Part shown: piece by piece, positions 21,594 through 21,703 of the stretch
Layout of the letters: each line of letters opens with the position of its first letter
How positions within the stretch are numbered: position 1 is the first letter of the stretch
Source of the DNA: Escherichia coli
Lineage (GTDB): Bacteria > Pseudomonadota > Gammaproteobacteria > Enterobacterales > Enterobacteriaceae
Direction: 5' to 3' (one strand)
Assembly: GCF_003334405.1 (NCBI RefSeq)
Contig: NZ_QOWM01000003.1
Length of the DNA stretch: 64,000 nt
The notes under the pieces: generated by a model
Seen by the model: the letters and a program-made list of their open reading frames with translations, nothing else
Databases searched by the model: none
Told to the model about the DNA's origin: nothing
Made by a program: the position numbers and the translations under genes

Positions 21594-21703
21594 GTTATAT
21601 GCCTTTATTGTCACAGATTTTATTTTCTGTTGGGCCATTGCATTGCCACTGATTTTCCAACATATAAAAAGACAAGCCCGAACAGTCGTCCGGGCTTTTT
21701 TTT
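21594..21703 (+). ncRNA. micC: MicC small regulatory RNA
   Basis: Sequence GTTATATGCCTTTATTGTCACAGATTTTATTTTCTGTTGGGCC...GCCCGAACAGTCGTCCGGGCTTTTTTT recognised as MicC; divergent from ompN, ends in an intrinsic terminator. Confidence 0.85.

Follow-up and report, generated by a model that had tools for sequence, protein, structure and literature searches.

The micC small RNA gene in the ompN-ydbK intergenic region of an Escherichia coli genome

The ompN-micC-ydbK locus and the neighboring prophage

The window analyzed here, the whole 64-kb stretch of Escherichia coli DNA (64,000 nucleotides of contig NZ_QOWM01000003.1, RefSeq assembly GCF_003334405.1), carries at 21594-21704 on the + strand what is almost certainly the micC gene, which encodes the trans-acting, Hfq-dependent small RNA MicC. 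It lies between two protein-coding genes of the - strand, identified as open reading frames and from the annotation of matching genomes: ompN (20233-21366), encoding the 377-aa porin OmpN, and ydbK/nifJ (21733-25257), encoding a 1174-aa pyruvate:ferredoxin/flavodoxin oxidoreductase. ompN is divergent from micC, with 227 nt from its ATG to the micC +1. ydbK is convergent with micC; its stop codon occupies 21733-21735, and a gap of 28 nt separates it from 21704, where the T-run of micC ends. A first-pass annotation had described the micC terminator as abutting that stop, which is fair wording as an approximation. K-12 has these genes in the same order and with the same orientations.

The entire 64-kb window was scanned against all 4227 Rfam families. 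The MicC model RF00121 matched 21591-21711 (+) with 125.0 bits (gathering score, 90; E value, 2.3e-19), a match that covers the whole model (positions 1-123 of 123) at posterior probabilities close to 1. Positions 21594-21704 are identical at 111 of 111 bases to micC (b4427) of K-12 MG1655, an annotated ncRNA at NC_000913.3 1437121-1437231 that is likewise flanked by ompN (b1377) and ydbK (b1378). The first-pass annotation had asserted a match to MicC over the full length and had singled out an Rfam search as the result that could overturn the name; both the model match, at 125 bits against a gathering score of 90, and the complete identity with b4427 bear the assertion out. The K-12 RNA was formerly called IS063 or tke8.

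The stretch from 21594 to 21703, which begins GTTATATGCCTTTATTGTCACAG and ends AAGCCCGAACAGTCGTCCGGGCTTTTTTTTT, is the one to which the name MicC had been attached. It starts at exactly the annotated +1 and ends 1 base before the RefSeq end (21704) and 1 past the end (21702) of the 109-nt RNA given in the literature (PMC5745476); the RefSeq K-12 gene is 111 nt long. These end-point differences are immaterial because 21702, 21703, and 21704 all lie within the T-run, and the RefSeq coordinates are used below.

Left of uspF-ompN, the window holds Qin-type prophage sequence and not the Rac interior. Positions 1-19241 are 99.9% identical to the Qin prophage of the O157:H16 strain 98-3133, in which Qin occupies its usual site between rspB and ydfJ, and positions 4789-16292 match Qin of K-12 at 99.9% (relBE, hokD, ydfU, ydfT, cspB/F/I, and lysis genes). 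From 16681 onward, the match is to the K-12 Rac right arm and then to uspF-ompN-micC-ydbK, at 99.5% identity, while over 16696-19241 the corresponding arm of K-12 Qin reaches only 98.0% identity. The prophage left of uspF-ompN-micC is a mosaic with its junction region at about 16292-19481 of window positions 1-19481, and the window begins inside it. Of 5426 complete E. coli genomes, only 4 contained a 12-kb query across the junction in one piece; the best match was a laboratory C600 assembly, which passes from rspAB-Qin...ydfK-ynaM straight into uspF-ompN-nifJ. The arrangement suggests an inversion spanning the replication terminus, as expected if the right arms of Rac and Qin, homologous and inversely oriented, had recombined with each other; alternatively, a Qin-type phage may be resident at the Rac site. 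Under either origin, micC and its promoter region are untouched. The earlier remark that the RNA is conserved despite a different prophage next door thus holds, micC being 100% identical to that of K-12 beside a prophage of another type.

The same Rfam scan returned further RNA elements above their gathering scores within the prophage: the sok antitoxin RNA of the hokD locus (3415-3586; 104 bits), cspA-type thermoregulator leaders at cspB (10432-10824; 159 bits) and at cspI (13334-13719; 113 bits), and IS009 in the prophage right arm (17227-17425; 221 bits).

Parts of the RNA and its promoter region

The 5' target-pairing (seed) region comprises MicC nt 1-22 (21594-21615, +) and was delimited by its complementarity to the ompC leader. 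The leader sequence was taken from K-12, since ompC lies outside the window; it is conserved at 99% identity or more in 5361 of 5426 complete E. coli genomes. MicC nt 1-16 are perfectly complementary, by Watson-Crick pairs, to AATAAAGGCATATAAC at positions -30 to -15 of the ompC leader, directly 5' of the GAGGG Shine-Dalgarno sequence. This run of 16 nt is the longest exact complementary run between the two RNAs; over 500 shuffles of MicC, the corresponding run averaged 7.2 nt and reached 13 nt at most. The duplex between MicC nt 1-22 and ompC -47 to -14 has a predicted energy of -26.5 kcal/mol (z, -4.9), a value equaled by 0 of 1000 shuffled seeds (mean, -13.6; standard deviation, 2.6). A duplex of full-length MicC with ompC -100 to +60 was also computed (-59.8 kcal/mol; 6 of 1000 shuffles as good) and was dropped as an unrealistic all-over duplex that ignores intramolecular folding, so the exact-run and seed-only analyses were used instead.

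Following the seed, the Rfam consensus structure places a middle stem-loop at 21628-21662 (+), in which 21628-21634 pairs with 21656-21662; the Rfam middle helix itself is MicC nt 36-41 with nt 63-68, and its loop varies among genera. Next comes an A/U-rich stretch, AUAUAAAAAGAC (21662-21673, +), which lies just 5' of the terminator and is unpaired in the Rfam consensus; its equivalent, AAUAAA(U/A)(U/A)GAC, is kept in the orthologs. MicC is described as Hfq associated (PMC3333887). By analogy with established Hfq-dependent small RNAs of class I, the A/U-rich stretch and the U-tail are a candidate Hfq-binding module.

RNA folds place an intrinsic terminator at 21674-21704 (+), with a stem of 21674-21683 and 21688-21697, the loop AGTC, and nine T residues at 21696-21704. 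Nine of the 10 stem positions are paired, six of them as G-C pairs (21676-21680 and 21683), and one is an A.C mismatch (21681 x 21690). The terminator had been called strong at first sight, and a G+C-rich hairpin followed by nine T agrees with that description, with the single mismatch as a nuance. A simple terminator scan of the + strand did not call it, because the scan admits only G-T wobbles and the A.C mismatch interrupts the stem; the missing call is not evidence against a terminator. The entire MicC RNA folds at -25.1 kcal/mol, with a z score of -3.0 relative to dinucleotide shuffles.

On the - strand, the terminator scan and folding gave a terminator-like hairpin followed by GUCUUUUUAU at 21664-21697, placed for the convergent ydbK/nifJ, 36 nt downstream of its stop codon. 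This hairpin has 10 pairs, 6 of them G-C, with 21681 x 21690 becoming G.U, and is the only terminator-like site that the scan called. It is probably a bidirectional terminator that would serve both micC and ydbK, in which case the 3' ends of ydbK mRNA and MicC would be complementary to each other along some 40 nt. The position and strand of the called hairpin could also be read to mean that the whole stretch is just the 3' untranslated region and terminator of ydbK/nifJ, with no independent RNA on the + strand. We give that reading practically no credence: the terminator covers just about 35 of the 111 nt, the 16-nt perfect complement of ompC would go unexplained, other genera conserve both the first 21 nt and the middle helix, a conserved -10-like element is correctly spaced on the + strand, the T9 of the + strand is longer than the U-tract of the - strand, and MicC of K-12 is an experimentally established RNA (PMC5745476).

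Taking micC as a gene of the + strand, the hairpin might additionally end the ydbK mRNA in such a way that the roughly 40-nt 3' end of the latter (approximately 21704-21664), perfectly antisense to the Hfq-binding 3' module of MicC, leads to titration or destabilization of one RNA by the other. We regard this as improbable. ydbK is reported to be controlled by SoxS under oxidative stress, so that its induction could titrate or destabilize MicC; conversely, MicC could affect ydbK mRNA. Expression of pyruvate:flavodoxin oxidoreductase would then be coupled to porin control. Oxidative-stress phenotypes of MicC that are incompletely explained by OmpC have been described (bioRxiv 10.64898/2026.07.27.741068).

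A scan for consensus sigma-70 promoters upstream of micC on the + strand called nothing; the candidate promoter, with 3 + 4 of 12 matches, lies below the scan threshold. Its putative -10 hexamer, TATTCT (21582-21587, +; -12 to -7 from the annotated +1), was recognized by conservation and matches TATAAT at 4 of 6 positions. Separated from it by a 17-nt spacer is a weak -35-like element, TATACT (21559-21564, +; 3 of 6 matches), for which other genera have TATACA (4 of 6 matches). The -35-like element overlaps an A/T-rich block, AAAATAAAAATTATAC, at about 21548-21564 (+; -46 to -31), that emerged from the upstream alignment. Across about 30 loci from several genera, the alignment of -90 to +10 displays strongly conserved islands in an otherwise variable spacer, and within the A/T-rich block ATTATAC is invariant and the remainder is at least 90% conserved. 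This pattern is consistent with a weak core promoter (7 of 12 matches) assisted by an A/T tract that is either UP-like or bound by a regulator. The spacer contains two more conserved islands, at about 21504-21517 (GAAAT..TGATAAT) and 21523-21529 (GTGAATG). The first of these overlaps a promoter-like site of the - strand with a -10 sequence, TATCAT, at 21512-21507, and probably represents either the promoter of ompN or a regulatory element used in common. MicC has been described as OmpR regulated (PMC3333887).

The 369-bp intergenic region was aligned among the window, K-12, and the best-matching genome, that of strain GF3-3. The window differs from K-12 in 2 columns: it has T instead of C at 21499 (-95) and G instead of A at 21542 (-52), two positions that precede micC and lie outside the RNA. 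These substitutions, or the altered neighborhood, might have left the micC sequence intact yet effectively silent here, so that it would be MicC by descent only. The failure to find a consensus promoter fits such a reading, as do the rearranged A/T-rich prophage about 2 kb to the left and the H-NS repression and weak expression under standard conditions reported for micC and ompN (PMC5745476). We nevertheless consider silence very unlikely: neither substitution touches the conserved -10 element or the A/T block, strain GF3-3 also has the G at 21542, no base of the RNA or of the promoter-proximal 50 nt departs from K-12, in which MicC is expressed and functional, and the locus is retained in nearly all E. 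coli genomes. Conditions under which K-12 expresses MicC include low temperature, minimal medium, and beta-lactam stress. For micC as a working gene, transcription, Hfq dependence, and translational block in this strain are expected from its full identity with the characterized gene and from the literature.

Distribution and orthologs

All but 13 of the 5426 complete E. coli genomes (5413) contain a 501-bp region with the locus. By megablast, the 111-nt gene itself was found in 4911 of the 5426, at 99% identity or more in 3709 of them. The approximately 500 genomes that have the region and lack a megablast match probably carry divergent alleles of the middle region, which would escape the search for want of a 28-nt exact word. 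L013 and L017 are examples of such divergent E. coli alleles, and L017 scores 116 bits with the Rfam MicC model. In the RefSeq/PGAP annotation of sampled E. coli genomes, no feature is given under micC; only K-12 MG1655 annotates the gene, and micC is therefore easily missed by annotation-based pipelines.

Orthologs were sought by scanning GTDB species-representative genomes with the 21-nt seed, which returned 30 loci from Citrobacter, Escherichia species, Superficieibacter, Pseudocitrobacter, a Raoultella metagenome-assembled genome (MAG), an Enterobacteriaceae MAG, and Salmonella (Salmonella enterica subsp. arizonae and diarizonae). The seed was the search pattern, so its invariance among these loci is not independent evidence. 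All 30 loci have the terminator, AAGCCCGAA...TTCGGGC(T)7-10, located 100 to 114 nt downstream of the seed.

Ten orthologs were tested against Rfam, and 6 scored above the MicC gathering score (97 to 123 bits). The other 4, short variants of 100 to 103 nt, score 63 to 68 bits (E, about 1e-7), below the gathering score of 90. These short MicC-like RNAs lie at 6017-6127 of L009, 9778-9889 of L023, 3508-3621 of L027, and 453-565 of L034, and their hosts are Superficieibacter, Pseudocitrobacter, and the Enterobacteriaceae MAG. They keep the 21-nt seed, the terminator, and the synteny with ydbK and differ in the middle region; they appear to be MicC homologs that the curated threshold misses.

In an alignment of 26 orthologous sequences, standard pairs occupy 95.9% of the cells of the terminator and middle helix, and sliding the partners by 1 to 3 columns lowers pairing to 29 to 51%. 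For the middle helix alone, 91% of cells are paired across the 26 orthologs, compared with about 50% after a slide of one column. It contains one compensatory pair, a C-G to U-A exchange in 5 sequences, and support from covariation is accordingly modest. RNAalifold applied to the 26 orthologs predicted the terminator only, and the middle helix was specified by hand. The terminator stem is invariant in the alignment apart from the A.C mismatch and one other and, never varying, is uninformative on covariation. The T-to-C change that gives the A.C mismatch is seen in the window, in K-12-type E. coli, and in Escherichia sp. L036; the other 24 sequences keep A-U.

The six-frame list contains an ORF at 21571-21822 (+; TTG start, 83 aa) that runs through micC, and the stretch could in principle owe its conservation to a small protein encoded there. 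Such a protein would have to be translated across the strong terminator hairpin and T9 and then antisense into ydbK, and the pattern of conservation (seed, helices, and terminator) is that of an RNA. The middle region also carries indels of 1, 2, 3, and 4 nt among the orthologs (lengths, 100 to 114 nt), so the frame is not conserved. The ORF was rejected as protein coding, and the chance that it accounts for the stretch is vanishingly small.

Synteny was examined by tblastn of the OmpN and YdbK proteins of the window against the 30 loci. YdbK is downstream and convergent in 29 of 30, and the remaining locus ends before ydbK; the aligned segments, in some cases short because the locus breaks off within the gene, show 84 to 98% identity. 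The pairing of micC with ydbK thus held in all 29 assessable loci. An OmpN-like porin (71 to 98% identity) is upstream and divergent wherever the flank suffices, except in the two Salmonella loci: no OmpN-like porin was found within 3.1 kb upstream in L015 (diarizonae) or 4.3 kb upstream in L033 (arizonae). The divergent pairing of ompN with micC is therefore not universal.

Function and relation to known systems

The identification as MicC, made at first from the sequence alone, is now supported by the Rfam match, identity with K-12, genomic context, the ompC-complementary seed, the terminator and U-tail, and conservation across genera, and no result speaks against it. The micC of this window is an ordinary gene, already known and described; MicC has been characterized since 2004. 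As a discovery it is of little weight, and the value of the check is that it fixes the coordinates of the gene and its parts in the window.

From these parts, transcription of MicC would start at a weak, A/T-rich promoter between ompN and micC, with TATTCT and TATACT as candidate elements, and would end at the hairpin and U-run of 21674-21704. The Hfq-binding module would consist of the 3' hairpin with its U-tail and the A/U-rich stretch before it. The single-stranded 5' end (nt 1-22) would pair with the ompC leader just 5' of the Shine-Dalgarno sequence, and this pairing would block 30S binding and reduce OmpC synthesis. In agreement with such a scheme, MicC, from a gene divergent from ompN, is described as repressing OmpC by pairing with the ompC 5' untranslated region (PMC5745476), and OmpC is the sole validated MicC target in E. 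coli (bioRxiv 10.64898/2026.07.27.741068). By tuning OmpC, MicC tunes outer membrane permeability and the entry of beta-lactams, and an intact copy is therefore relevant to reading the porin regulation of this strain.

The closest known system is MicC of K-12, which has the same 111-nt sequence, flanks, orientations, ompC-complementary 5' end, and terminator as the window; K-12 differs in the wider neighborhood, with the Rac interior left of uspF-ompN, and in the two intergenic substitutions. MicF resembles MicC as an Hfq-dependent small RNA of about 100 nt that is encoded divergently from a porin gene, in its case ompC, and that pairs through its 5' end with the leader or ribosome-binding region of another porin mRNA (PMC5745476); micF was seen adjoining ompC in K-12. 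Unlike MicC, MicF has another sequence, belongs to another Rfam family, and targets ompF rather than ompC. The activators of MicF are well defined (OmpR, SoxS, and MarA), whereas the regulators of MicC are poorly defined (PMC5745476). Salmonella MicC (L015 and L033) has the same seed, terminator, and linkage to ydbK as the window, and L015 scores 122.8 bits with the Rfam MicC model, while its middle region differs in sequence. In Salmonella, MicC also targets the ompD coding sequence at codons 23-26, acting via RNase E cleavage (PMC3333887); the part of the RNA that pairs there is the same seed that in E. coli would pair with the ompC leader.
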